Assembly (NCBI GenBank): GCA_010093745.1
Contig: MU006013.1
Coordinates: 62,001 to 96,914, forward strand
DNA length: 34,914 nucleotides
Source: Piedraia hortae CBS 480.64
Lineage: Eukaryota
Direction: 5' to 3'
The notes below the pieces were generated by a model that ran no database searches, was not told the origin of the DNA, and saw only the letters and a list, made by a program, of their open reading frames with translations. This document shows, piece after piece, positions 16,279-30,387 of this stretch. The translations under genes were made by a program, and so were the position numbers. Numbering within the stretch: position 1 is the first letter of the stretch; each line of letters opens with the position of its first letter.

Positions 16279-19200
16279 CTACCCCCTCGCATTCTGCCAC
16301 TCATTAAACGCGTTCGCCGCAACAGCAACTTGCTTATAGAGCCAATTCCTCGCCTGTTCATCCCCAATGGGAATAAATGGCCCGTTCGTGCCACCATTCA
16401 AAATAATCCCCATCCCCGTCCTTTCTTTCGAAATCGTCCTAATGTCCTTCAACGGAACCTCCCACTCCGTCGAAAGCCTCTTCGCACGAACCAAGATAAT
16501 CAGGTTATACGTCACGAATACAATCATTGATGCTTCGGAACTTTTTCCCTTCTGGGGGGAGGCTTCGCTATTGAGTTCCAAATGGGCAATGTATTTTTCG
16601 TTAAAGTAGCGTCCGTTGTCGATTGTTTTGAGCCAGAATTGGCCGAGGGCTTCGCGTTGGGAGTAGGGACGTACGATGCCGCTGATGTCTATAAAGCGAG
16701 GCATGCGCACCCGGTCGAGACCTTCTTGGTCGAAGATTGCGGTCGTATTTTTGACGCCTTCGGCGAGGTTGGAGGCGAAATCAAAGGCGCCGATTGCGGG
16801 TTTAGTGGCGAAGCCTAGGAGGCCTTTTCCTACGCCTTTTACGAAGCCTGCGGCACCTTCTTTCTCTGCACCTTGCATGGGTGCGCGGGCGAGACCACCG
16901 ATTCCGCTTGCGAGACTTGATGCTAATGCGTTGCCGCCAGAGGTTATGCCATAGAGGGCGTGTTTGGGTCGGTTTCGTGCCTTGGACATGCGGCGCTTGT
17001 CTTGGAATTCCTTGTCCATGCTCGCTGCTGCCAGTCCTTTGCTTATGCTGCCTGTGAATTTGGAGACACTGTCTGAGAAGCCAAAGACAGATTTCTTAAC
17101 GAAACTGCTCGCACCCTTGGCGATACCAATGCCAAGGTCCTGTGGGCGGTCGGTTACCAGACCTTGATACGGTTCGTAGAATATATCTGCTACGCCGGAG
17201 CTGATGTTGTTGAACAGACCTATGGGATTGCCGAGGAAGTCGGCTGAGCCGATTACGATGTGCACTTGTCGTAAAGACTCCTGCACGTAATGGCTTTGGA
17301 TGCTGGATATTAAAGCGTTGACCGAGAGACGGGCGTTTTCGAGTATGAGGGCATTGTAGCGGATAGGAGCGTCGTTGACGTTGCCAATTGACATTGTCAA
17401 GACGTTGACGGCGAACATAAACGGATTGTTCGATGAACTCCCCGTATCCTCTGCGTTGATGCGTTCTGTGCGCACAAAGGACAAGTCAAACTGCATCGGC
17501 TGCAGATGTAAGAGCTCAAAGTAAATGTCCTGGCCCGACTGCTCTTGTTGCGGCTCTGGAATGTCAAGCTTCTCCGGAGCGAGTTGGCCCTCCTTTTGCT
17601 CCGTCCACGACGCGCCAGGGACCTTGGTAAAGTCCAACAGGGCAAAGATAAAGTCTTCGTCGATCTCAATCGTCATCTGCTGCAGCAAAAAGGTAAAGTA
17701 CTTGATGTAGAGCACGCCATACGAGTCGTCTTTGACTCGCGTAACCGATGAGCGAAAAATAGGATGAGCCTCCATTTCCTTGCCCGTCTTCGGCACCACA
17801 CTGGGATAGAAGATGAGCGGGAAGATGCCTCCGTAGAGCTGATTGTCAATCTGAATCCACTTGACAGTCAACGCTGCCGTTTGGTATAACGGCGAATCGG
17901 TGTATTTCAACTCAATGTCACGCAGCGTAATGTAGACCAAATCACGCAGCTGCGAATTGATCAGAGACACGCCAATACCGGCAAAGCGCAACGTAGCCCG
18001 CATCGACACATTGGTGTCCTGCTCCTTCATCTCAAAATCGTTTGCGCCCAACGTCTTCTGCTTAAAGTGGCTCTTACTGGGCTTGTAATTTGAGATGATG
18101 AGCGTCTGAGTGGGACCCTCGGCAACGACATTGAGATCAAGAATCTTTTGTCTCTGTGCAGACGCCTGCCCTCTTGGCGGACCGGAGATACGCCACGGAA
18201 TTTGCTGCCCAATCTCCGCCAGCTTTACGTGCCGCACCTTGTCATTTGTGCTGATGACGAGGTTCTTGTTCTTGCTCGCAGGATAGTCCCAGGCATAGGG
18301 CATGATACTGCGGGGCGGCAGGCGGTAGCGAAGTGGCTTCCACCCAGTTGAACGATCATCTTCATCCTCATCAACATTGGGATTAGCCTGCCAGAAGATA
18401 ATCTCCTCGGCGCTCTCGTTCCGCATGGAAAACGGCCAATGCTTCGTCTCTAGGCTGAGGTGAAGGAAGATTGTGGCCTGTTCTACGAGAATCTCGACAC
18501 GAATCAGCTTCTGACTCTGTCCGGCCTTAGCCACCTTGACGTGGACGCTGCCCAAGTTGGCCATGTCAAACGGCGACGACCACGAGCTGTTAGCCCCTGG
18601 GAGGCACAGGCACAGCTGCTGGCCTGTGGCGTGCTTGAGGAACCGCAGCGGGTGGAGTTCGCCTGGCTTCAGCGTGGCCGCGTCCGAAGAGCCCGGTTCA
18701 CGAATCATAATGTTTTGCCCAAGCTTGTTCTTGACGATAAATCGAGGAGTGATGGTGACGACTTTGGTCAGTTTGTACCTGCCCTCGCCCTCCATGACAT
18801 TTAGACCGGCATGCATCTGCTCCTTGCCCGATTGGGACAACAACTTGGCATCTGCATTGGCCCCAATGGCGTCAAACGAAAGCGGCTGACTCCAGGCCGA
18901 GTCGCCAAGCTTGATGAGCGCCCTGTTCTTGCGGTCATCCGTGGGGAACGAGAACATGAGCGGCTTCGCCTCCCTGACATTAGATTCATCATCAGAGAAA
19001 GCCATTTGACCAGCCGCGTTCCTGGTCCCTCCAAACGTAGCCTTGCTCTTGATCTCCAAGTCCAAACCAGTGCGATTCAGGACGACATACGGACTGTATA
19101 CGGTGATTCTGAACGCACCACCACTGTCCGGGATGGTATAGTAGTGGATGCCCAATCTTAGCGGGATGTTATGATTATCCTTGACCGTCAGAGTCTTCTC

Positions 19201-22200
19201 TCGACGGAAATCCGAATCATTGCTATTGATGATGGCAAAGTCGCTGGTCTGGAACTGGGTGCCCTGCATGTCAACACTAAGTAGCAGCAAGTGGCTCAGC
19301 TCGACTACATGCACCGGGCTCTCTCCGCCCTTGCGTAGGAAATTGGTCCAGTCCTTTTTGGACTGCTTGTCGTAGATGCGGTACTTGAAGTCGTACGGCA
19401 GCAAGTTTTGCACCACAACCGGCGCAGACAAGCGGATGCGCATATACGGATAGACACTAGTGAGCGGGTTCTTCTTGTCGTATACGGCTTGCATTTGGAA
19501 ATAGAACGGCGGACTTCCCTGCGGACCATGTTCCCCGGCGCAAGTTAGTGTTCGGACGGGACGCTTGAGGAGGTCCTTCCAGAACAGCCGCTCGTTGCTC
19601 CAGGTGTAGTGAAAGCCTGGATCAGGCCGGACGACAAGGCTGTGCATGAAAGCGGCCCCGACCGGAGCCGGGCGTGAATCGCCAGGGGCAATCTTCTCAA
19701 TCTTGAGCAAGTGACCCGCATCCGGGCTGTATACACCCATCTCAATGGGTATATGCGTGTTGTTTTCCACCACCAGAGGCGAGCGGAGGGTGATGTACTT
19801 GACATTGTCAGTGCCCAGAGTGACATCGACCATTAGACGATGCTGCACATTGTCCTTCTTGGGCCTTAGATTGTACAGCGTCTCAGCCTCACGGGTGACT
19901 TGGATCTGCTCGATGCTGTCGAAGCCACTTCCATCTAGACGCACACCAATGACTCCGCTCTGGCTTTCCGGAGACAATGTCTCACGCGTCCTGGTGGGAT
20001 CCTCGAACCGCCAGGGCTTTTCTTCACCGTCTTGCATCTTCTCTGCCTGTCCTTCACCGCTCCCTTCTCCACCCACTGACCACACGAATGCCTCAAAGCC
20101 AGTGTAGTTGCGGATGCGGTATGGGGCATCATTACCTCTGGGCTTGCTGAGTACATCCTCATCGCTCGACAAGTACTGGGTGCTCTTGCTGGCGAGGGCA
20201 ATTGTGGCAGATGTGATTGTCAACTCCAACGTCTTGCGAGAAAACAACTCAATCGAAAGCTTCTCCGCCTCCCTGGCCATGTGGAAGCCAAGGCTCCAGG
20301 GCTCAATCAGTGGCTCCCACGCTGACTTGGAGAAGTTGTACACGTTAAAGTACGTGTCAACAGTCGTATCAGCCGTCATGTTGTCAGTCCAATCACGCAC
20401 ATCAACGTCAAATTTGTGTACGGTCCAATCAAGCATCGGCAGCTCATGTCTGTCTCCAATGAGAACTACACGTACGCCGCCAACCTCGAGGTGCATCTCC
20501 TCCCGTTTAATAACTCCAGATGCCGGAGCCGGGCGATCTGGTTTCTGCACTTTCGACGACTTTCTGGTAGCCATAGTCCTGGTCTCTGGTCTATGAGACG
20601 TCTTTGCACTCTTGGCTCTTGTGCTCTGGCTGGACTTGGTAATCTTCTTGGGGGCTTCGTCTTCCAGTTGCTTGTTCTGCTGGCCCGACATTGCCGACGC
20701 CCGGTTGACAATCTGCATGGCAAGCAAGATGTCGCGCAACGACAACCGTAGAACTAGAGGCTCGATATCGACGTGGATGCTGGTCACGTCAGAATCTTTG
20801 CCTTGGGACTGCATGTCAAGAGACATTTGGACGCTGAAGTCATCCAATATCCGCAGTCTGGTCGTCTCAAACTTGTCCATCCGACAGAGAAACATGCCGA
20901 CCTTCTCGACCTGCAGTGTCATTGCGTTTTGCTGACTAAACAAGACCTGCTTCGTGCCCAGGACGATCGCCTCTGACTCCTTGATGGCCGGGTTAGCGAT
21001 GAGAACAGCCTGGGCATCTACAATATTGACCCGATACGCTATGCTCATGCCGCTCTCCTGCTTTTTCTCAGTTGCCACCTCCTCCTGGGAACGACTCCGT
21101 TGCTGAATGATCTTATGCGTGTCGACGCTTGATGCTTCTTGTTCCATCTCGCTCTGCGACTCTGGCTCGCTCTCCTCCTCGACAATCATTGGCTTATCCT
21201 GCGCGATGCCGGTGTTGACGAAGCTGAGCAATGCAAACAGATAGTCCAAGGCAACGATTACCCGCGGACTGTCTATGCTGAGTATGGCAACAAGCTGCTT
21301 GTTTTCCCCGCCAGAGATGCTGACAGAAGCCATAAACTGCTGCTTGACATCGGTGTTGATAAGCGACATGACCTTGCGGAACTCGGTCTTCTCATGCGCC
21401 CGTGTATCGTTGATGATAAACGATTGCACCAGGAACTCGCCTTCAACCGCCCCGTTGTCCAGCATGCGGAGCTTCACGCTGGTCTCGTTGAGGGAGAACT
21501 TGGACAGACTCGCTGCGTTCACGTCACCGATTGGCTGGTCCAGCTTGCCAGATACCAGCTCAAGGGAAACGGCCCCAACACGGAATACAAGATCCATCTT
21601 GGTCCAGTTCTGACCATCATTGCCCAGCTCAGGGCCGAGGTGAGAGGGAGCTGCATCTTTGATGATCATAGTCTCGCTCTTGGCCTCTTGGCGGACGTTC
21701 TCGGCTGGTCTGACGATGCTCTTAGGCAAGTCGTCCTTGGCCTCTTCCTCGGCATCTTCGCCAGACTCCAATGCAAATGCCTCGGGCAAGTTGCGAGACA
21801 GCTCCATGACGAATTTGAGCTGTGCCTCGGTGATGCGGATGTTGATGTTTGACATTGATCCCTCAACCTCAATGTCGGGTCGCTTGGCTCCCGGTTGGTG
21901 GTCCATCTGGAGAACATTGAACTCTATTCCCGCCTGGTCAATCAGGTCAAGTGACTCAGGCTTGTCATCTGCATAGTGGAATAGAGACGTCAGCCGCACC
22001 TTGCGAAGCCCGATGCTCATCTTATTGGCAATCGATGACGACTGTTGACTTTGTTCTAGCGGGACAAACTCATTCTTGGCATATATTTCACCCAGATACG
22101 CAGTCAGCGTGTCCCGCTGTGGGCTCTCGGCAACAACAATTTTGGGAAAGGCCACGATAGGCGTCTTGATCAGCACGTCAAAGTGCATCTTGCTAGCATT

Positions 22201-25200
22201 CTGCTGCACCCTCGTGGCCTGGTTGGCGGCCGCTTGACGTGCAGCGTTGAACAAGGCCTGCATCTTGCCGAATTTGATGCCAAACTCCATAATCTTCCGA
22301 AATGGCTCCGTCATGAAATTGACCTTCAACGACCCAGAGCGTAGATAGATTTTAGAGTCATGGCCAGGATATAACTTGGAGTTGGGATCGAAGGTTTCAT
22401 ACCGCAGATCAGCAAGCTCATCGCCCTGGATGCTGACCAGCTGTCGAAGCTCAGAGTCCTCAGCAACGCCTTGATTGATGTCATCGACGAGATTAAGATT
22501 ACCCAGGCGAGCACCAACTTGCATCGTGCTCCCAGCAAGAAACACGTTGACCTCGGCGGACGTCAGGCTCAGCGTGGCTAGACGGATGCCATCACTGTTC
22601 AGAATAACTGCAATCCGTCTGAGCTCAGCTCTGATTCTGATCTTATCCTGGTTTTGACTCCGGTTTTGTTGAATCGCCTTCTGCTCCTCGGGCTTGTCAC
22701 CCTGCTTAGCCTCGCTGTCCTTGTTGGTGTCATTTCCAGTAGTAAAGGTGTCGAGAGTAAAATCTAGCAACGTGAGGAGAGTCTTTCTGGTGACCATAAG
22801 GTTGATGGTCGACACTGCCACGTCAAGATTTGTCTTGATTCCCTCGAACTTGGAGTTGAAATCCGGATGTGACGGATTGACTTGCTGGAAATTGACCACA
22901 AGCAGGTCCTGCTGCTCCTGCGAGGACGAGTCTTTGCTAGAAATGAGGTTCTTGAATTCTGGCACCGGCGTTTCTTCAACGTGGTCCTCTACAGTCACCG
23001 AGCGAAGTCGAACTTCGGCAACCATGTCATAGGCTCGTTGGTAGAAGTTCAGATGGAAAGATTCGGCAATCAGATCAATCAGCAACTGGTCTGACTTTTC
23101 ATCTGTGCCATCGGCCTTGAACAGGGAGCCCTGCAGTTTGCCAACAGTGAACTGGAATTCAAAGTTGTGCTGCTCAGGATTGACATCAGCTGTCTTTTGA
23201 CGGCCTACTGTGGTCACCGATGAGGTAGAGTATGTAGTTTTGTGTCGAATGCCTTCATCATCATCGTCGTTGTCGTCGTCGTCGTTGTCGTCGTCGTCAT
23301 CAATGACCAGATCATGACCGCGTGCTTGGAAGCTCTTCGCTCTAGGACGGCCACTCCCGCTTGGTCTCCGCTTGATCTTCTCCTCTTCGGCCTCCGCTTC
23401 TGTAGCCTTCTCCGGTGCATCACCACCGAATTTAGGGATGGCAAAGTCGATGATTTTCATCAAAGCCTTGTACTTTGCATCGCTGATGCTGGCGTGCAGA
23501 ATAGGCAAATGGCCCACAACCTTGAACTTGGTTAAGTCTTTCGCCTTTGGGATGATGCAGACTTCGATCTGGAAATCCATGTTGATACGCTGTACGACAT
23601 GAAAGTTCTTGGACGAGCTGCTCCCTTCCAGCTGTTTCTTGGTCTCCTCCAGCGTAGTACCTATAAGGACTTGGGTCGAGTCCAGCGTGACATCGAACTT
23701 GTCATACATCAGGCTTTCCAGCTGCCTAAGGTCACTTTCGCTGTAGTGCTGCCTCTGCTTATTCTGCACATCTTGCAGCGTAGCCTTGTCGATGAGTTTG
23801 CTCCGCACAGCGATGTGGCCGGCGTCCATAATTAAGCAATAGTTGCTCTGCCGAGTGACCGTATCTGGCAGAATGATGAGAGGGGCTTGGAGATCAAGCT
23901 GCACATCGATGCTCTTGTGCTCTTGGAGGGCAAATTCTAGGCTCGCACGAGTCTGCTGCCTCAAACCCTCTACAGTCTCACCAGCCGTCTCCATCAAAGC
24001 CCCAATACTTTCCATTTGCCGCTCCGGAGGTTCAAAAAATTTGGCCACCTGAACTACAAAATTTGGATTGTACACGATTTCCATGGCCTTTAGCTTCAGG
24101 TTGATGGCCTGGTCTGCATGTCCATCGAGGGGGTTCATCTCATACGACATGGCAAAGAACGAATCCTCGACCTCGGTGCTATCTGCAGCTTCGTCATCGT
24201 CCCCAACCTCCTTGATCCTCTCAGAATCAGGCACAGGTGGTGCGTCCTTGACCCTCAGGATCTCTTCGTAAAGACTGCCAGGGGTGCTGCCGTCATACAC
24301 CCTCAGGCCACCCAGAGACAGGTTTAAAAGAGTGGAATCCGTCCGCTGGATCAGCTCTGTGGAGAAATCCTCATACAATAGGCGGAGAATGTCGGTTTGC
24401 TTGCCATGAGCATCTTTTCTAAGCGTAAACGATCCGCTCCGCAGACTCATGTCGACTTGGAGCTTAATGGCCTCTTTGGGCACATCGACGGATTCAGCCA
24501 AGGATTGCTTTTCGTTAAAGTCAATAGCCTCGTAAAGCTCTTTGCGCTGCTGGTCCGTCATCTGGCTGTCGTCACTTGCCTCTTCTTGCTTGCTGGAACT
24601 GCCCCAGATGTATGACGTCCACGAGCGTTGCTTGGGCTGTTCTTTTTGCCTCAGAGCACCCTCTTTGCGCAGTTCGTTTCGAGCCAGACTACGCCAAAAT
24701 CGTAGGTCTTCGTAGCTCAGCTTGTGTTCTAGGGCATCCAGTTCCTGTGCATCCTCAGGGCTGAGCTTCTCGTCTAGCTTCTTCTGCTTAAACAGCGAAA
24801 TGTACCTGATGCGGTCGTCTCGCCTCTCTTTGAAATAGGCCCAGGTCCAGCGCTTGTTCTTGTCGTGGATGCGCTCCAGTACAACTTTGGCGGCGAACTG
24901 CAGCCAGGCACGGGCATCTTCTTTGGGTGTCTTTTTCGGTTGCCACTTGCGATATTCTTGGTGTCTGATAAAGTAATGGAACAAGTCAACCAGCATCAAG
25001 GCATCGCGATACTGCTCATCATCAAGGACGAAGCCGAGTTCATTGAAGAGGAGACGGGCTTTCATCTTGGGACGGTCGTACTTGCCCGTCTTGCTCATTT
25101 CCAGTCCGGCCCGGCCAGACACGGGCTTGAGAATGTATTGATGGTCCTTGACCGCCGGATTATCGCCCTGAACAATGAGATTGCGGAACTTTTCAAGGAG

Positions 25201-25914
25201 TTCCTGATCGTCGCTGCCCGTCACCTGCTCGCCGGTGCCTTGACCGAACAACTTCGCATCCGTGTCCCAGTACAGACCCAGCGAGCCCAGGGTGGCGAGT
25301 TTGTGCGTTGTATCGCTGGTGCTCTGGATCCATGTCGGTCGCCAGCCTTCATCTGTACTAACGGCGCTCAGTTCGCGCAGGGTCAGACCCGCAGCGAAGG
25401 GATGATTAGGGTCGGAGATGGCATCTTCATAGCGAATGTGCACGTTCTTGACCTGGATCTGAACGTTATCTATGACTGTCGTGGTCAGAGCAGCGGTAAA
25501 TGACTGGTGTTTCTTCTGCTCCTCGGCTGAAAGGTTCTCTGAAGTGCGTTCATGGAGCATCTCGGCGCTCTCCAACTTCTCCATCTTCACCGTATACGCC
25601 CTCCGCTCCTCTTCTTCGACGTTGTACTCCTGCTCCTCCTTGGGACTTGCCAGCAGAAACACATCGTCAATTTGGATCTGGACGGGCTGGCCGCGCAAGT
25701 TGCTCCATGGGATTTTGAGCACCAGCAAACTAATGTGGCCCTTTACAACGTTTAGAGGCAGACGGAACTGGTCGAGGGCTTCCCGCCGCAGCTCCAAGTC
25801 CCGCAACTTGACGTCGCCGCCCCAGATGCCCACGTTGAGCTGTTTGGGGTCGAAATTGCGCACGTACAGGCCCAGGAACCTGTTCAGCAGGTTCGCTACC
25901 AGAGACTCCAACAT
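16279..25914 (-). CDS. VPS13: Vacuolar protein sorting-associated protein 13 (bridge-like lipid transfer protein), 3211 aa
   Basis: Chorein-N start MLESLVANLLNRFLGLYVRNFDPKQLNVGIWGGDVKLRDLELR; WEPLIEPW motif; C-terminal GSADFLGNPIGLF...GFVKGVGKGLLG region; single uninterrupted ORF. Confidence 0.98.
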   Translation of the reverse strand: MLESLVANLLNRFLGLYVRNFDPKQLNVGIWGGDVKLRDLELRREALDQFRLPLNVVKGHISLLVLKIPWSNLRGQPVQIQIDDVFLLASPKEEQEYNVEEEERRAYTVKMEKLESAEMLHERTSENLSAEEQKKHQSFTAALTTTVIDNVQIQVKNVHIRYEDAISDPNHPFAAGLTLRELSAVSTDEGWRPTWIQSTSDTTHKLATLGSLGLYWDTDAKLFGQGTGEQVTGSDDQELLEKFRNLIVQGDNPAVKDHQYILKPVSGRAGLEMSKTGKYDRPKMKARLLFNELGFVLDDEQYRDALMLVDLFHYFIRHQEYRKWQPKKTPKEDARAWLQFAAKVVLERIHDKNKRWTWAYFKERRDDRIRYISLFKQKKLDEKLSPEDAQELDALEHKLSYEDLRFWRSLARNELRKEGALRQKEQPKQRSWTSYIWGSSSKQEEASDDSQMTDQQRKELYEAIDFNEKQSLAESVDVPKEAIKLQVDMSLRSGSFTLRKDAHGKQTDILRLLYEDFSTELIQRTDSTLLNLSLGGLRVYDGSTPGSLYEEILRVKDAPPVPDSERIKEVGDDDEAADSTEVEDSFFAMSYEMNPLDGHADQAINLKLKAMEIVYNPNFVVQVAKFFEPPERQMESIGALMETAGETVEGLRQQTRASLEFALQEHKSIDVQLDLQAPLIILPDTVTRQSNYCLIMDAGHIAVRSKLIDKATLQDVQNKQRQHYSESDLRQLESLMYDKFDVTLDSTQVLIGTTLEETKKQLEGSSSSKNFHVVQRINMDFQIEVCIIPKAKDLTKFKVVGHLPILHASISDAKYKALMKIIDFAIPKFGGDAPEKATEAEAEEEKIKRRPSGSGRPRAKSFQARGHDLVIDDDDDNDDDDNDDDDEGIRHKTTYSTSSVTTVGRQKTADVNPEQHNFEFQFTVGKLQGSLFKADGTDEKSDQLLIDLIAESFHLNFYQRAYDMVAEVRLRSVTVEDHVEETPVPEFKNLISSKDSSSQEQQDLLVVNFQQVNPSHPDFNSKFEGIKTNLDVAVSTINLMVTRKTLLTLLDFTLDTFTTGNDTNKDSEAKQGDKPEEQKAIQQNRSQNQDKIRIRAELRRIAVILNSDGIRLATLSLTSAEVNVFLAGSTMQVGARLGNLNLVDDINQGVAEDSELRQLVSIQGDELADLRYETFDPNSKLYPGHDSKIYLRSGSLKVNFMTEPFRKIMEFGIKFGKMQALFNAARQAAANQATRVQQNASKMHFDVLIKTPIVAFPKIVVAESPQRDTLTAYLGEIYAKNEFVPLEQSQQSSSIANKMSIGLRKVRLTSLFHYADDKPESLDLIDQAGIEFNVLQMDHQPGAKRPDIEVEGSMSNINIRITEAQLKFVMELSRNLPEAFALESGEDAEEEAKDDLPKSIVRPAENVRQEAKSETMIIKDAAPSHLGPELGNDGQNWTKMDLVFRVGAVSLELVSGKLDQPIGDVNAASLSKFSLNETSVKLRMLDNGAVEGEFLVQSFIINDTRAHEKTEFRKVMSLINTDVKQQFMASVSISGGENKQLVAILSIDSPRVIVALDYLFALLSFVNTGIAQDKPMIVEEESEPESQSEMEQEASSVDTHKIIQQRSRSQEEVATEKKQESGMSIAYRVNIVDAQAVLIANPAIKESEAIVLGTKQVLFSQQNAMTLQVEKVGMFLCRMDKFETTRLRILDDFSVQMSLDMQSQGKDSDVTSIHVDIEPLVLRLSLRDILLAMQIVNRASAMSGQQNKQLEDEAPKKITKSSQSTRAKSAKTSHRPETRTMATRKSSKVQKPDRPAPASGVIKREEMHLEVGGVRVVLIGDRHELPMLDWTVHKFDVDVRDWTDNMTADTTVDTYFNVYNFSKSAWEPLIEPWSLGFHMAREAEKLSIELFSRKTLELTITSATIALASKSTQYLSSDEDVLSKPRGNDAPYRIRNYTGFEAFVWSVGGEGSGEGQAEKMQDGEEKPWRFEDPTRTRETLSPESQSGVIGVRLDGSGFDSIEQIQVTREAETLYNLRPKKDNVQHRLMVDVTLGTDNVKYITLRSPLVVENNTHIPIEMGVYSPDAGHLLKIEKIAPGDSRPAPVGAAFMHSLVVRPDPGFHYTWSNERLFWKDLLKRPVRTLTCAGEHGPQGSPPFYFQMQAVYDKKNPLTSVYPYMRIRLSAPVVVQNLLPYDFKYRIYDKQSKKDWTNFLRKGGESPVHVVELSHLLLLSVDMQGTQFQTSDFAIINSNDSDFRREKTLTVKDNHNIPLRLGIHYYTIPDSGGAFRITVYSPYVVLNRTGLDLEIKSKATFGGTRNAAGQMAFSDDESNVREAKPLMFSFPTDDRKNRALIKLGDSAWSQPLSFDAIGANADAKLLSQSGKEQMHAGLNVMEGEGRYKLTKVVTITPRFIVKNKLGQNIMIREPGSSDAATLKPGELHPLRFLKHATGQQLCLCLPGANSSWSSPFDMANLGSVHVKVAKAGQSQKLIRVEILVEQATIFLHLSLETKHWPFSMRNESAEEIIFWQANPNVDEDEDDRSTGWKPLRYRLPPRSIMPYAWDYPASKNKNLVISTNDKVRHVKLAEIGQQIPWRISGPPRGQASAQRQKILDLNVVAEGPTQTLIISNYKPSKSHFKQKTLGANDFEMKEQDTNVSMRATLRFAGIGVSLINSQLRDLVYITLRDIELKYTDSPLYQTAALTVKWIQIDNQLYGGIFPLIFYPSVVPKTGKEMEAHPIFRSSVTRVKDDSYGVLYIKYFTFLLQQMTIEIDEDFIFALLDFTKVPGASWTEQKEGQLAPEKLDIPEPQQEQSGQDIYFELLHLQPMQFDLSFVRTERINAEDTGSSSNNPFMFAVNVLTMSIGNVNDAPIRYNALILENARLSVNALISSIQSHYVQESLRQVHIVIGSADFLGNPIGLFNNISSGVADIFYEPYQGLVTDRPQDLGIGIAKGASSFVKKSVFGFSDSVSKFTGSISKGLAAASMDKEFQDKRRMSKARNRPKHALYGITSGGNALASSLASGIGGLARAPMQGAEKEGAAGFVKGVGKGLLGFATKPAIGAFDFASNLAEGVKNTTAIFDQEGLDRVRMPRFIDISGIVRPYSQREALGQFWLKTIDNGRYFNEKYIAHLELNSEASPQKGKSSEASMIVFVTYNLIILVRAKRLSTEWEVPLKDIRTISKERTGMGIILNGGTNGPFIPIGDEQARNWLYKQVAVAANAFNEWQNARG
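23255..23303. repeat. Imperfect trinucleotide (TCG/TCA) run encoding a poly-Asp tract in VPS13
   Basis: tcatcatcatcgtcgttgtcgtcgtcgtcgttgtcgtcgtcgtcatca encodes DDDDDNDDDDNDDDD on the minus strand. Confidence 0.8.
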
Positions 25915-26230
25915 GGTGTGTGGTGTCGCTGGCCGCAGCCTTTGGGTGTTGGTGGCGGCCTGATTGCGTCACACCATCCACGTCGATGTCTACGAAACTC
26001 GCGCTACAGTGGCTACAGATGGCATTGGTCTTGTGTAGTGGCCAACGTGTCATGTTGCATTCCAGCCGAGGTCTGCGTCATTGCCCCGCCGTTGACATCG
26101 AGTCTCGACTACAGGATGCCAACACAGGTCCTTCCCATATGATAGGAATAGGTCATATTAACAGCCATATCTAAACGCCATCTTCTCGTCGCCCCTTCAC
26201 GTGTCCCAGCCCAGCTTCCTCTTCCACTTA

Positions 26231-26375
26231 CACAGCCAACCTCCCCGCATGATGCTGCGTCACGCGTCGTCGGACGATGAGGCAACTAATCTCGACATTT
26301 TGCGAACATATCAAGGCTATTGGCAAGTCAAGCACATACAGATAAATAACAAAAGAGAATACGGCCGCTTTGCCA
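26231..26375 (+). repeat. Left terminal inverted repeat of the CMC-like element
   Basis: Reverse-complement match to 28320-28494, e.g. ggcaactaatctcgacatt(t/a)tgcgaacatatcaaggctattggcaagtcaag. Confidence 0.92.
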
Positions 26376-26462
26376 AAAGTACATTCTTCACCGGAAAATC
26401 AGATAATACTAAACTCCCTTATAATTCCCGCGCATATGTTAATCTCAAACAGCCCAGCATGA

Positions 26463-28313
26463 TCAATCATCTTGCGTTAGCATGTGGATGTTGTCAATCC
26501 AGCGATTGTCATACACGCCGTCTGTGGAGTGCCTCCAAGCAACCCCTTCAACGCTTTCCCGTTCTGTTCTGGTTGCGTTAGGCACCCAAACTTTTCGGCA
26601 TTTCACAGTGCAGAAGTGTTGCACGTTTAGGACACTGGAGATCGAGCCCATGGGCACTGTTGTGAATCGCTCACTGGAGGCCAACACTGGAAACCCAAAG
26701 GTGCCATGCTGTTCTTCCAATGTGGTTGTACAAAATTCCTCAAGAAGGGCGACATGATGGGCTGTGCCCACAAGAGAAATCTGAGCTGAAAAAACAGTCT
26801 GACCACCACATTTCACGAACGACCCGGCACTGCATTTGACAGGCACATGCAAGCGGGTAAGTGCCTTGTACGAATTTTGGGACCAGCCCAAGCCAAACTT
26901 CGTACAAAGCCCATCATGAGCTGGCAAGTCCCTGATGGCAATTGTATGCTCATTGTGTGGGTCGGTGCAGCCGGTTCAACGGGAAGGCCCAGCAGCTGTC
27001 GTGTCTTCGGCTGGTTGAGTGCCGTATGCATCCCCGCAGGTGCCTATTGAGCGACTCTGGGATTTTCGAGGATAGGTCTTGCGGTGGACCAAATCTGCGC
27101 ACCATTTCGGGCACATGGATAACCATATGAAGCTTAGTCTTTTTCCTGATGCTCTCCAGGCCCCAGACGTCGGTCCATAGCTGAAGCATACGTTCGTAAC
27201 GATGCTTGAACAGTGCTTTCCACTGGTTAATGTATTCGATCTGCCTTGGATATATCGTTCTGGCAAGGTCGGCTGCGATACACCACATCAGCAGGAGCCT
27301 ACGGACTGGACCCGTCCGTCCCCTTGAGGAATAGAAGGAGACCAAAGTTGCCGGCCAGATCTCGATCAAAGCCCGAAAATCCGAGCCCACAAAGGACTTG
27401 CTCCAAAGCAGGATTTGTTGCGCGTCCAGAAAATTGTTCATCCCACCCCGGTTTGATGAGGCTGCGCAGAGAGCCAACTCCTCAAAGTCCGACTTCATCC
27501 TCGGGTAATCCAAGGACTGGTGCCAGAGGCTTCTGACAAACCCCAGTGGCACACCGTGCAATATTCCAAATGGGATATCCTGGTACGGATCAAATACTTC
27601 CAAGTGGTATAAGGAGGAGATTGGCGGCTTGATGCCATTCTCGGTTCTCTCAAGTGCCCCAGAGTACTATTCGGATCTGGGTGCTGCCGCCGAAGCCACA
27701 TCTTGCCACGACGTAACACTTGCTATGTTGAACAAGCAATTGCAACAAGAGCAGTTACTCGTGTGCTGATTAAAAATCACACCAGAAGCTGCAGGAATAT
27801 CTGCGAGAGCCATGGTAACCCCTCCAAAGATAGCCTGCGCTCTCTTACGCCGAGGATCAAAAGCTTTGATTCCCCGTTGGAGCCGGACGAACTCAGGAGT
27901 GAGGCTATCAATCATGGTATTGCCCTTCATCCTTGCCCCAACAACCACGAAATGGTTGGTGGAGGTATGGAAATTTTCCTTGAAAGGCATTAGTGACAGT
28001 ACCGCATTGGTTGTGAATGCAGTATGGTACTCACTACACGTGGCTTCCCGGAAAAGGTATGTGACCAAACCTCCAGGGGGTTCCATTTGGAAGTGGTTGT
28101 GGCGCTTGTGCCATCCGTCCAGAAATTGATGTTGAATTGGGATACTTCAGCTCCATATTTTGTGACGAAGGCTCAAGCAGGATGTGGTCTCGTTATGGAT
28201 TCCATGAACCCCGAAGCAAGGCGTTCCGCATTTTCGGCTACCAGACTGAAATTCGACCCGGGAAAAGCGTTTAGGAATTTGTACTCTGGCACCCATAGGA
28301 TCGTATCCTCTGC
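26463..28313 (-). pseudogene. Decayed CMC-type DDE transposase: 5'-truncated, predicted intron 27979-28034, two premature stops, one frameshift near 26980
   Basis: Reconstructed motifs in order: FWTDGTSATTTSKWN, SGKPRV/ENFHTSTNHF, GIKAFD, ALADIP, CCNC, FDPYQDIPFGILHGVPLG, KSFVGSDFR, KLHMVIH, RRFGPP...PESLNRHLR, LNVQHFC. Confidence 0.82.
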
Positions 28314-28319
28314 AACATC

Positions 28320-28494
28320 TGGCAAAACGGTCGTGTTCTCTTTTGATATTTATCTGTATGTACTTGACTTGCCAATAGCCTTGATATGTTCGCATAATGT
28401 CGAGATTAGTTGCCCAATCGCCGCACGACGCTGCGTCACGCAACCTACGCCGCGTGACGCAGCATCATGCCGGGGGAGGTTGGGGTTGGCTGTG
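28320..28494 (-). repeat. Right terminal inverted repeat of the CMC-like element
   Basis: Reverse-complement match to 26231-26375; carries an additional internal hairpin segment at 28430-28463. Confidence 0.92.
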
Positions 28495-28642
28495 TATGCC
28501 CTGTGCTCTGCTGTTGCCCGCTCGCCTGTCTGCCAGCCTTTCCTGCATTTGTCGCCTGTTTAACCTTCATCATCCCACGCATTACTATCTTTTATTGTTC
28601 ACGTCTCTCCTTCCCAACTCTTCGTCACACTCCACTTTGACC

Positions 28643-30387
28643 ATGGCCAAAACTTTTTCGCCAGAACAACGCCTCACTGTCGAGGAGTTCTCCTCCGAGA
28701 GCGGAAAGCCCTTTGGCACCGTCAAGGGATGCTCCTCCCAAGACGAGCGTGACATGGACCGCATGGGCAAAGTACAAGAACTGCGCCGGAACTTTAGCTT
28801 TCTGCCCATCCTCGGCTTCGTTTCACTGATTCAAGGCACCTGGGAGGGCCTATTGGTGTCCAACTACCCTGGCTTGCTGAACGGCGGTAGAGCCGGTCTC
28901 TTCTGGTGCACCATTGCCGTGTGGATCTTGACCATTGGCGTCAGTGCCTCCATGGCCGAGATGGCCAGCATGGCCCCGACTGCTGGAGGCCAGTTTCATT
29001 GGGTACGTTCTCCATGCACCTCCCCACCCCGAGCTGAACTCCCGCTGCCGTCAGGTCAGTGAGTTTTCTCCGCCGTCGTTGCAGCAACCCATCTCGTACC
29101 TCGTCGGCAGTTTGGGTGTTCTTGCTTGGGTTGCCGGCATCCCGGCCATCTGCATCCAAACAGCAACCCTCGCACAAGGCATGGTTCTCATCACCTACCC
29201 GGACACCAACATTCAACAAAACTGGCAAGTCAGCCTCATGTCCTTTGCGGTCATTATCCTTACCGTTTGCTTCAACGTCTTCTTCGCACAACACTTGCCG
29301 CATGTGGAGGGCGTGGTCCTTTTCCTACACGTCTTTGGCTTCCTTGCGTTTATGCTTGTTTTGTGGATCACGCCAGCAAGCCACGCATCTGCTTCTGAAG
29401 TCTTTGGAAGCTTTTAGTGAGTCCAACTTTATGGCGCTCGGTTCATGTCGCTGACTAAAACAGCAATGGTGGTAACTGGCCCAGCACTGGTCTCTCCTGT
29501 ATGGTTGGCTTGTTGACGCCCATCTGGTGCTTCGTCGGCACCGATGCCGGCGCCCACATGTCCGAGGAAATGAAAGATGCATCGGTCGAGCTGCCCCGTG
29601 CCATGATGTTCTCCGTCATTGGAAACGGAATTTTAGGATGCACAATGCTCGTGACCTTTCTGTGCGTCCCTGCTTCGGTTTTCTCCATCCAACGGCTAAC
29701 AGTTTGCTCAGATTTGCCATTACCGATGTCGAGAAGCAAATTATCAATGCCGAAAACAACGTTCCCTTTCTTTTCATCATTTACAGTGCTACAAATTCCA
29801 AAGCCGGAACCTGCATTTTGGGCACCGTCTCGCTCATCCTCTGCTTCTTCTGCGCCGTCACAAATGTTGCAAGCTCTTCGCGCCAGATCTGGGCCTTCAG
29901 CCGTGACCACGGCCTTCCCTACGCCTCCGTCATCCGTCAGGTGCACCCCAAATGGGAGATCCCGCTCAACGCACTCCTCATTTGCCTCGCCATTTCGCTG
30001 CTCCTTGGCGCGATCCGTTTCGGCTCAAACGTCGCCTTCAACGCCATCACCAGCGTCTGCACCTGCGCAGCCTTCTTCTCCTACATCATCTCCATTGGCT
30101 GCGTCCGCCTCAAGCGTCTGCGTGGCGAGCCACTGTTGCCCCGCCGCTGGTCGCTCGGCCGCTGGGGCGGCGTTATCAACGACATCTCCCTTGCGTGGCT
30201 GCTCATTGGCTTCGTCTTTGCCTTCTTCCCCACCTCCGTCTACACCGGTGATGGCACCTGGTGGAGCACTTCTTGCAACTTCGCCTCCTTCATCTTCGTC
30301 GCCTACTTCATTCTCACCATCACCTACTACTTCATCAGCGGCCGCTACCACTATGTCCCACCAGTCCGGCTGGTCAAGACCGAGTGA
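28643..30387 (+). CDS. APC-superfamily amino acid/choline/GABA permease; exons 28643-29002, 29055-29416, 29464-29661, 29712-30387
   Basis: Motifs MGKVQELRRNFS, SMAEMASMAPTAGGQFHWVSEFSP, DAGAHMSEEMKDAS and SSRQIWAFSRDHGLP; many TM segments. Three GT-AG introns (52, 47 and 50 nt) restore one continuous frame. Confidence 0.93.

Follow-up and report, generated by a model that had tools for sequence, protein, structure and literature searches.

Transposons of the CMCT clade, which unites ESTA, EnSpm, Mirage, Chapaev, Transib, Plavaka and Lanisha, have 5'-CA..TG-3' termini and target-site duplications of 2-5 bp (PMC12730594). ESTA, the EnSpm-like transposons with TA duplications, was published in December 2025 (Kojima, Biology 2025, PMC12730594), and its transposases were recognised through HHpred similarity to RAG1. 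In the passages and supplement of that paper on which we draw, ESTA is kept apart from fungal EnSpm as a lineage of its own, and the ESTA families come from Puccinia or Melampsora and measure 7-14 kb; their consensus sequences start with CACCACGGG or similar and, in two cases (ESTA-5_PCor and ESTA-12_PCor), with CACAGCGGG. The same passages assign 3-bp duplications to EnSpm proper, the termini TGT..ACA (PlavakaA) or CATCA..TGATG (PlavakaB) to Plavaka, and TA targeting also to PHISTA, a separate lineage (PMC12730594). CACTA En/Spm elements account for 0.2 % of the genome of the dothideomycete Mycosphaerella graminicola, according to the cited part of PMC4522978. The CMC entries of RepBase come from Basidiomycota and Mucorales, the observed distribution being broader, and Dothideomycetes are described in the cited section as poor in DNA transposons (PMC5751038). 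Here, we analysed a stretch of 34,914 nucleotides (the window; contig MU006013.1, positions 62,001 to 96,914, assembly GCA_010093745.1) from Piedraia hortae CBS 480.64, a species with the smallest assembly (16.95 Mb) among 101 Dothideomycetes in the cited comparison (PMC7082219), and describe a TA-flanked transposon remnant at positions 26231-28494 of this window.

With a probability of roughly 0.8, the element is a decayed, non-autonomous copy of a class II cut-and-paste transposon whose ends are terminal inverted repeats (TIRs) and that belongs to the CMC/CMCT clade. Likened by structure and not by a transposase tree, it fits the definition of ESTA better than those of plant-type CACTA, Plavaka or Transib. 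Like ESTA, it has an apparent TA duplication and a CAC start, two ESTA families starting with CACAGC as the element does, and its transposase family resembles RAG1 in structure-level comparison only. Unlike the ESTA families of the published supplement, so far rust-fungal only, 7-14 kb long and in some cases equipped with a TET/JBP gene, the window element lies in a dothideomycete, is a deletion derivative of 2.26 kb and has no TET/JBP gene. A preliminary description of the locus, made from the sequence alone, had suggested an uncatalogued family or a horizontal transfer; CAC termini with a TA duplication are already described and define the ESTA lineage (PMC12730594), and CACTA/En-Spm elements are annotated in M. 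graminicola (PMC4522978).

Ends and target site of the element

The element is 2264 bp long, with long TIRs and a TA outside each end. The 10-mer CACAGCCAAC begins at 26231 on the plus strand and its reverse complement closes at 28494; within the window, this exact 10-mer occurs at these two ends and nowhere else. The termini read CACAG at 26231 and CTGTG ending at 28494, the 5'-CAC..GTG-3' form of CMC elements. The end features are as follows.

26229-26230, no strand: TA, left copy of the presumed 2-bp target-site duplication (direct sequence reading)
26231-26372, plus strand: left terminal inverted repeat, beginning with CACAGCCAAC (repeat search, end-to-end arm alignment)
28323-28494, minus strand: right terminal inverted repeat with two extra blocks of 8 and 22 nt (repeat search, alignment, DNA fold)
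28495-28496, no strand: TA, right copy of the presumed 2-bp target-site duplication (direct sequence reading)

TA accounts for 0.0345 of the window dinucleotides, so that finding it by chance at both flanks has a probability of ~0.0012; for any identical dinucleotide the value is ~0.064. Extended to three bases, the flanks differ (TTA on the left vs TAT on the right) and only TA is common to both, unlike the 3-bp duplication of EnSpm/CACTA elements proper. The repeat search delimited arms measuring 117 nt (89 %) and 31 nt (90 %), and an end-to-end alignment of 26231-26380 with 28494-28315 contained 135 matching, 15 mismatching and 30 gapped columns, the latter being the blocks of 8 and 22 nt that are present in the right arm only. 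The similarity is solid up to ~26372 and ~28323, corresponding to arms of ~142 and ~172 nt, close to the ~145 and ~175 bp estimated before. These data confirm the observed TIR transposon, which retains both ends, has termini of the CAC type and is flanked by a 2-bp TA. The element as a whole is not intact: part of it has been deleted, and stops and a frame break interrupt the remainder.

Within the arms, the motif GCGTCACGC is present as a single copy on the left (26257-26265), and the 22-nt block yields an inverted pair of GCGTSACGC on the right (28433-28441 and 28452-28460). All three occurrences of GCGTSACGC in the window fall within the TIRs (chance expectation 0.33), and we consider this 9-mer a candidate transposase-binding motif. 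The right-arm pair is predicted to form a hairpin at 28423-28470, with a DNA folding energy of -26.1 kcal/mol (z -2.79). Scanned for tandem repeats, the element contained none.

A decayed transposase gene and its family

We compared the interior of the element with two sequencing runs of one organism (share of the stretch 0.93 for X1 and 0.68 for X2) and with related proteins, among them the full-length relative P0005 (1109 aa). Searches with relatives by tblastn delimited three minus-strand fragments (28331-28035, 28041-27016 and 26930-26466) that amount to ~575-600 codons, in agreement with the three joined fragments of ~600 codons recognised initially. The motifs named at that time are all present at their places in the window, as listed here in the direction of translation.

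28322-28323, no strand: internal-deletion breakpoint; the sequence upstream is coding in other copies and right TIR here (contigs, P0005 coverage)
28035-28331, minus strand: upstream exon remnant, 99 codons, with the first catalytic D (tblastn, motif positions, alignment to P0005)
28173-28175, minus strand: in-frame stop in the upstream exon remnant (frame reading, tblastn)
28104-28121, minus strand: WTDGTS, first catalytic D (motif position)
28077-28091, minus strand: SKWNP (motif position, upstream exon remnant)
27979-28034, minus strand: probable 56-nt intron, GT..AG (X1 contig skip, P0002 junction, collinearity with P0005)
27016-27978, minus strand: main exon remnant, 321 codons, with D / C(2)C / ILH / H(3)H / E (tblastn, motifs, alignment)
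27793-27807, minus strand: LADIP, second D (motif position)
27736-27753, minus strand: CSCCNC, C(2)C (motif position)
27667-27669, minus strand: in-frame TAG in the main exon remnant (frame reading, tblastn)
27553-27567, minus strand: GILHG, containing ILH (motif position)
27115-27129, minus strand: HMVIH, H(3)H (motif position)
27046-27060, minus strand: PESLN, E (motif position)
26931-27015, minus strand: frame-disrupted stretch, passing from frame -1 to frame -2 by one indel or more; coding in relatives, the HSN..SRD region (tblastn)
26466-26930, minus strand: C-terminal remnant, 155 codons with no stop inside; BAH-like beta fold in the AlphaFold2 (AF2) model (tblastn, AF2 model)
26610-26627, minus strand: NVQHFC (motif position)
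26463-26465, minus strand: stop codon ending the C-terminal remnant (sequence)

The first of the frame changes in the preliminary description is most likely not damage but a GT..AG intron. One X1 contig omits 27978-28033 and ends CT..AC with 'cut +1', the junction ..KPRV / ENFHTS.. equals the one used by the Piedraia hortae protein model P0002, and the spliced reading is collinear with P0005; 27979-28034 is thus probably a 56-nt intron. We guess X1 to be RNA, the alternative for the skip being a DNA copy without those 56 nt.

Because ~437 N-terminal codons are deleted and two in-frame stops and a frame break interrupt what is left, the window copy is dead and unable to make a transposase. The window aligns only to residues 438-1109 of P0005, and the missing part includes the equivalent of P0005 234-437, a region that aligns with the N-terminal part of the RAG1 core. 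Three X2 contigs diverge from the window after 28322, and their reverse-complemented loose end encodes ..RTLNGF as in P0154. Other copies have one base more behind 26929 (three X1 and three X2 contigs). In P0005 numbering, conserved residues have been replaced at E680 (by G), E850 (by K) and R620 (by C). Repeat-induced point mutation was considered as the cause of decay and rejected: TpA/ApT (0.55), (CpA+TpG)/(ApC+GpT) (1.45) and the GC content (0.50) of the element are like those of its flanks, and since these indices are normal we ascribe the decay to ordinary mutation.

To which family did the broken gene belong? A 398-aa read-through piece from the window (P0001) was run with phmmer against 1.84 billion representatives and retrieved 270 proteins at E<=1e-3, of which 41 reach <=1e-10 and 12 reach <=1e-30. 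The closest named matches are four fragmentary proteins of P. hortae CBS 480.64 itself (233-551 aa, 74-93 % identity), followed by five proteins of 1041-1166 aa with 30-32 % identity; outside P. hortae, no protein in this search exceeded ~38 % identity. Armillaria novae-zelandiae supplies the single named distant relative, with 28 % identity to P0005. The C-terminal remnant is 80 % identical to P0153 by tblastn. A profile of the five long relatives matches all 156 of 156 collected proteins, the window-derived queries P0001 and P0003 included.

The reading D / D / C(2)C / LH / H(3)H / E that the preliminary description had given to the motifs aligns with conserved columns of this transposase family. 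The correspondences are listed below with the residue counts per column, which refer to the members aligned there and are lower bounds, proteins with large insertions being aligned in part only.

WTDGTS, family pattern WNDGMS, P0005 D515 (alignment): D in 34/37
LADIP, family pattern GDNP, P0005 D601 (alignment): D in 47/48
C-C-N-C, family pattern C-R-V-C, P0005 C619/C622 (alignment): C in 44/47 and 38/45
ILH, family pattern ILH, P0005 H683 (alignment): H in 139/141
HMVIH, family pattern HQLSH, P0005 H829/H833 (alignment): H in 135/137 and 134/137
PESLN, family pattern NEAAN, P0005 E853/N856 (alignment): E853 in 133/134
NVQHFC, family pattern NVQHVC, C-terminal domain (alignment)

Pfam searches with five frame pieces and P0001 returned no transposase family, the weak matches in the pieces being DUF7796 on the C-terminal piece (E 0.0039, 16.6 bits, cut-off 27) and EKR (E 0.23). 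In the relatives, Transposase_21 (PF02992) appears below threshold in 4/21 at E<=0.01 and in 6/30 at E<=0.1, and DUF4218, likewise sub-threshold, in 2/30 (E<=0.1). The AF2 model of P0005, built with 30 relatives, is confident, with a predicted local distance difference test score (pLDDT) of 79.9 and a predicted template modelling score of 0.76. Foldseek found 48 matches to this model at E<=1e-3, and all of those listed are RAG1, the amphioxus RAG1-like protein BbRAGL or the Helicoverpa transposase HzTransib, the best being 6oet_A (7.4e-9 over 467 columns). With VIA-align, residues 234-919 of the model superimpose on RAG1 461-1008 at Z 17.1 (447 residues, root-mean-square deviation 4.7), and the model matches BbRAGL at Z 14.4 and HzTransib at Z 13.5. 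The RAG1-type predicted fold, the motif set and the CAC ends argue together that the family belongs to the CMC/CMCT clade (CACTA/EnSpm-Mirage-Chapaev-Transib, with a RAG1-like fold). The 'CMC-like' call of the preliminary description holds at this level, by fold, motifs, CAC ends and the weak Transposase_21 matches, and falls short in that no hidden Markov model (HMM) score reaches its cut-off. The basidiomycete flavour suspected there agrees with two leads, the Armillaria relative and the nearest ESM-Atlas clusters, which are Plavaka-bearing or without a name and mostly from Basidiomycota (scores 0.92-0.94); we treat both as leads only.

Compared with the described members of the clade, the family shows a mixture of features. 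With RAG1, RAG1-like proteins and Transib (6oep, 6b40, 6pqx), it shares the fold of the whole core, as judged from P0005, but the sequence identity is 12-14 % without a sequence-level match, and the family has in addition a BAH-like domain at the C-terminus and a C2H2-like finger at the N-terminus. The heptamer of the recombination signal is CACAGTG, its first five bases being equal to the terminal CACAG of the element, and Transib makes 5-bp duplications. CACTA/En-Spm elements resemble ours in the CAC termini, in a transposase of the DDE type that carries the motifs C(2)C, [M/L]H and H(3-4)H, and in the weak Transposase_21 and DUF4218 matches of the relatives; they differ in that the presumed duplication of the element is a 2-bp TA and not 3 bp, the Pfam scores stay below cut-off and the TIRs of the element extend over 140-170 nt. 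Plant CACTA elements have short CACTA ends with subterminal repeats. Mirage is alike by description, with a 2-bp duplication and CMC-type motifs; it is known mainly from animals. Plavaka (PF18759) is a fungal CMCT lineage with the same motif set, an ESM-Atlas score of 0.94 and, in PlavakaA as described in the cited passages, 2-bp duplications; its termini, TGT..ACA or CATCA..TGATG, differ from the CACAG of the element. The Plavaka model PF18759 matched 0/30 and 0/21 relatives and no piece from the window.

The full-length relatives of ~1100 aa are made up of four parts, among them an N-terminal C2H2-like finger and, at the C-terminus, a BAH-like domain. We folded the C-terminal piece 26466-26930 with 25 relatives (AF2, pLDDT 81.5) and compared the model, without Foldseek, with 48,161 representative PDB chains. 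The 12 best matches were bromo-adjacent homology (BAH) domains with Z 9.5-7.4, only moderately above the stated tool background of 7-8, and therefore the assignment relies on the consistency of the matches: 16 of the 18 best contain a BAH domain. Residues 933-1105 of the P0005 model likewise match the BAH domains of BAHCC1 (Z 11.0), ORC1 (10.7) and DNMT1 (10.2). The Pfam BAH model found no match in the window pieces or the relatives. We conclude from the models that the C-terminal domain of the transposase family is predicted to fold like a BAH domain. In the piece, H105, C107, C111 and H134 (NVQH-x-C-xxx-C ... H) are invariant in 26/26 rows, which suggests a zinc site. We speculate that the domain may read chromatin for target choice. 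Among the papers listed by a single literature search, none deals by its title or abstract with a BAH domain in a DNA transposase, and Chromo and PHD domains are the only such domains mentioned in transposons in the passages of one of these papers.

Two further observations concern the relatives. A metagenome scan with five close rows found one locus, L001 (2351-3997), with 30 % identity to the N-terminal half; its product starts with MPNCPLC (C2H2-like finger) and reaches the first catalytic D (FWNDGLS), where the contig stops. A TACACAG-type end sought on this contig gave chance-level matches only, the contig ending before the rest of the gene. P0090, a relative of 1661 aa, carries three C-terminal Annexin repeats (Pfam E 7.3e-41), the result of a fusion or else of an artefact in the gene model.

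Copies, junctions and neighbouring genes

The two runs placed 146 (X1) and 191 (X2) contigs on the stretch at 85-100 % likeness. Among those of X2, 49 are at >=99 %, 33 at 95-99 %, 70 at 90-95 % and 39 below 90 %, which shows that the host genome contains several diverged copies; the summed depth within the element is 56-257 vs 11.6 in the X2 left flank, a value not to be read as copy number. The divergence of the copies points to a long residence rather than a recent arrival. The left junction of the window copy (25400-26330) is crossed by a contig in both runs with zero differences and the right junction (28365-28974) by one X1 contig, and hence the insertion is fixed in the sampled material. 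Among the nine joints listed for the two runs of this one organism, no joint from ~26230 to ~28495, as an empty site would give, was found. A joint '26395 to 28320, opposite strands' was set aside as an ambiguous placement on the near-identical TIR arms. The right end of another copy reads ..GTTGGCTGTG and then TA (two contigs), without the 8-nt block.

The element adjoins a VPS13 gene on the left and an amino-acid permease gene on the right, in a divergent promoter region of ~460 bp. The VPS13-type lipid-transfer protein is complete, encoded on the minus strand at 16282-25968 by an uninterrupted frame of 3229 codons with the Pfam domains VPS13_N, VPS13_M, VPS13_VAB and VPS13_C, and it starts ~300 bp from the left end of the element. 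The permease gene begins at 28643 on the plus strand, 148 bp off the right end (AA_permease_2 sub-threshold, first exon). With both gene starts this near to its ends, the element splits the short divergent promoter region. X1 contigs of the VPS13 and permease genes extend 100-130 nt into the TIRs, and the permease gene shows GT..AG-type skips in X1 at 29001-29054. The transcripts of the neighbours could start or read through in the TIRs. An X2 (DNA-like) contig ends at the same place, and the X1 contig ends may be mere assembly branch points.

Taken as a family history, the data suggest the following course. The enzyme of the family would bind the long TIRs, cleave at the CAC ends and insert at TA with a 2-bp stagger, by which TA is duplicated. 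The data show the anatomy, homology, fold, decay and multi-copy status; the cleavage chemistry, the TA specificity of the family and a chromatin-reading role of the BAH-like domain are inferred. This copy would have inserted at a TA between the VPS13 and the amino-acid permease genes. A later internal deletion (breakpoint ~28322) would have removed the 5' part of the transposase gene, and two stops, one or more frameshifts and replacements of conserved residues would have been acquired as well. At most, such a copy could be moved in trans, given an intact one.

Weighing the explanations

Several points weigh against the reading as a CMC/CMCT element with a TA-specific enzyme. The preliminary description had tied its CMC call to a match with a transposase HMM, and no curated Pfam cut-off is reached by the window pieces or the relatives, the best Transposase_21 score being 19.7 vs 28.6 bits. 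Searched against the PDB sequences, the profile of 30 members found no RAG1 or Transib chain at E<=10 and only chance-level matches (E 0.57-1.7), and the 50-aa window piece from H(3)H to E likewise gave chance-level matches only, with no RAG1 or Transib among them. The fold result itself comes from the relative P0005 (31.5 % identical over the core), not from the broken core of the window copy. As sequence-level matches to RAG1 or Transib are missing, the clade call rests on the predicted structure, the motifs and the weak HMM matches. Concerning the target site, one contig at the left end (26231) has a flank other than TA. The foreign flanks of the other ends (X2 loose ends at 26231 and 28476) resemble each other in inverted orientation and are thus perhaps not independent; they may stem from one duplicated locus, from a target that is repeated or palindromic, or from contigs placed ambiguously between the arms. 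With this copy and one other end in its favour, a TA specificity of the family is supported rather than established.

Is the element a true member of ESTA, the first outside the rusts, inherited by old vertical descent with patchy loss or transferred from a basidiomycete? The TA flanks, the CACAG start and the CACAGCGGG start of two ESTA consensus sequences speak for it, as does the RAG1-like fold, which parallels the HHpred similarity to RAG1 that defines ESTA (PMC12730594). The ceiling of ~38 % identity outside P. hortae among the 1.84 billion representatives, together with the Armillaria relative and the basidiomycete Atlas clusters (leads only), would fit such a membership or a transfer. 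Yet the families of the supplement are all from Puccinia or Melampsora and 7-14 kb long, and TA targeting arose repeatedly in DNA transposons, PHISTA being a separate case (PMC12730594). A recent transfer is further at odds with host copies that differ by up to >10 % and other-copy proteins that are only 74-93 % identical. A further point on the opposing side is the GC content of 0.50, which equals that of the flanks. We regard ESTA membership as possible, but would rather bet against it. That the family forms a separate CMC branch, fungal EnSpm- or Mirage-like, whose 2-bp TA duplication is independent of ESTA, has a chance that falls somewhat short of even. The only Pfam likeness, to Transposase_21 and DUF4218, is to models that are both associated with CACTA/EnSpm, CACTA/En-Spm is annotated in a related dothideomycete (PMC4522978), and fungal EnSpm and ESTA are distinct within a clade whose duplications span 2-5 bp in the cited passages (PMC12730594); these Pfam matches, however, all lie below cut-off, and flanks of TTA and TAT do not give the 3-bp duplication of EnSpm.

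A Tc1/mariner- or pogo-type TA element enclosing an unrelated gene fragment has a probability close to negligible. TA duplications with TIRs are typical of Tc1/mariner and Fot1/pogo in fungi, but Pfam detects no such transposase family in any frame piece, other copies have contigs that lead out of the TIR region and on into this RAG1-like gene, and CAC termini with TIRs of 140-170 nt fit CMC and not Tc1. EnSpm proper (3-bp duplication), Plavaka (termini, PF18759) and Tc1/pogo (transposase) were each set aside on these tested features. Of another kind is the proposal that the copy can still move, with an intact member of its family in the same genome acting on it in trans. Both TIRs and both CACAG ends are present, longer copies exist (loose end at 28322), and the intron-free contig suggests transcription of some copy, if X1 is RNA. 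Against this stand the identical insertion in both runs with zero left-junction differences and no joint across the element among those listed, the differences between the arms at 15/150 aligned positions plus 30 nt of indels, and the four named other-copy proteins, all fragmentary (233-551 aa), with no intact source of transposase seen among them; we consider present mobility quite improbable. A more far-reaching picture, in which an uncatalogued ascomycete CMCT branch is the first ESTA-like TA-targeting family outside the rusts, its BAH-like H-C-C-H domain steers integration to particular chromatin, and a horizontal arrival from a basidiomycete explains the patchy presence in a 17-Mb dothideomycete genome, is in our view unlikely as a whole.

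In summary, the favoured reading, a decayed CMC/CMCT transposon, makes the window copy a dead remnant that is of no matter for its host except that it lies in a promoter region shared by its neighbours. The family from which it derives is a fungal relative of the RAG1 and Transib transposases, as its predicted fold suggests, with no Pfam model and poorly catalogued in ascomycetes, and it has the TA-duplicating habit of ESTA, a lineage so far reported from rusts only in the published supplement. Since it combines an ESTA-like structure outside the rusts with a predicted BAH-like domain and has no curated model, this family is worth a phylogeny.

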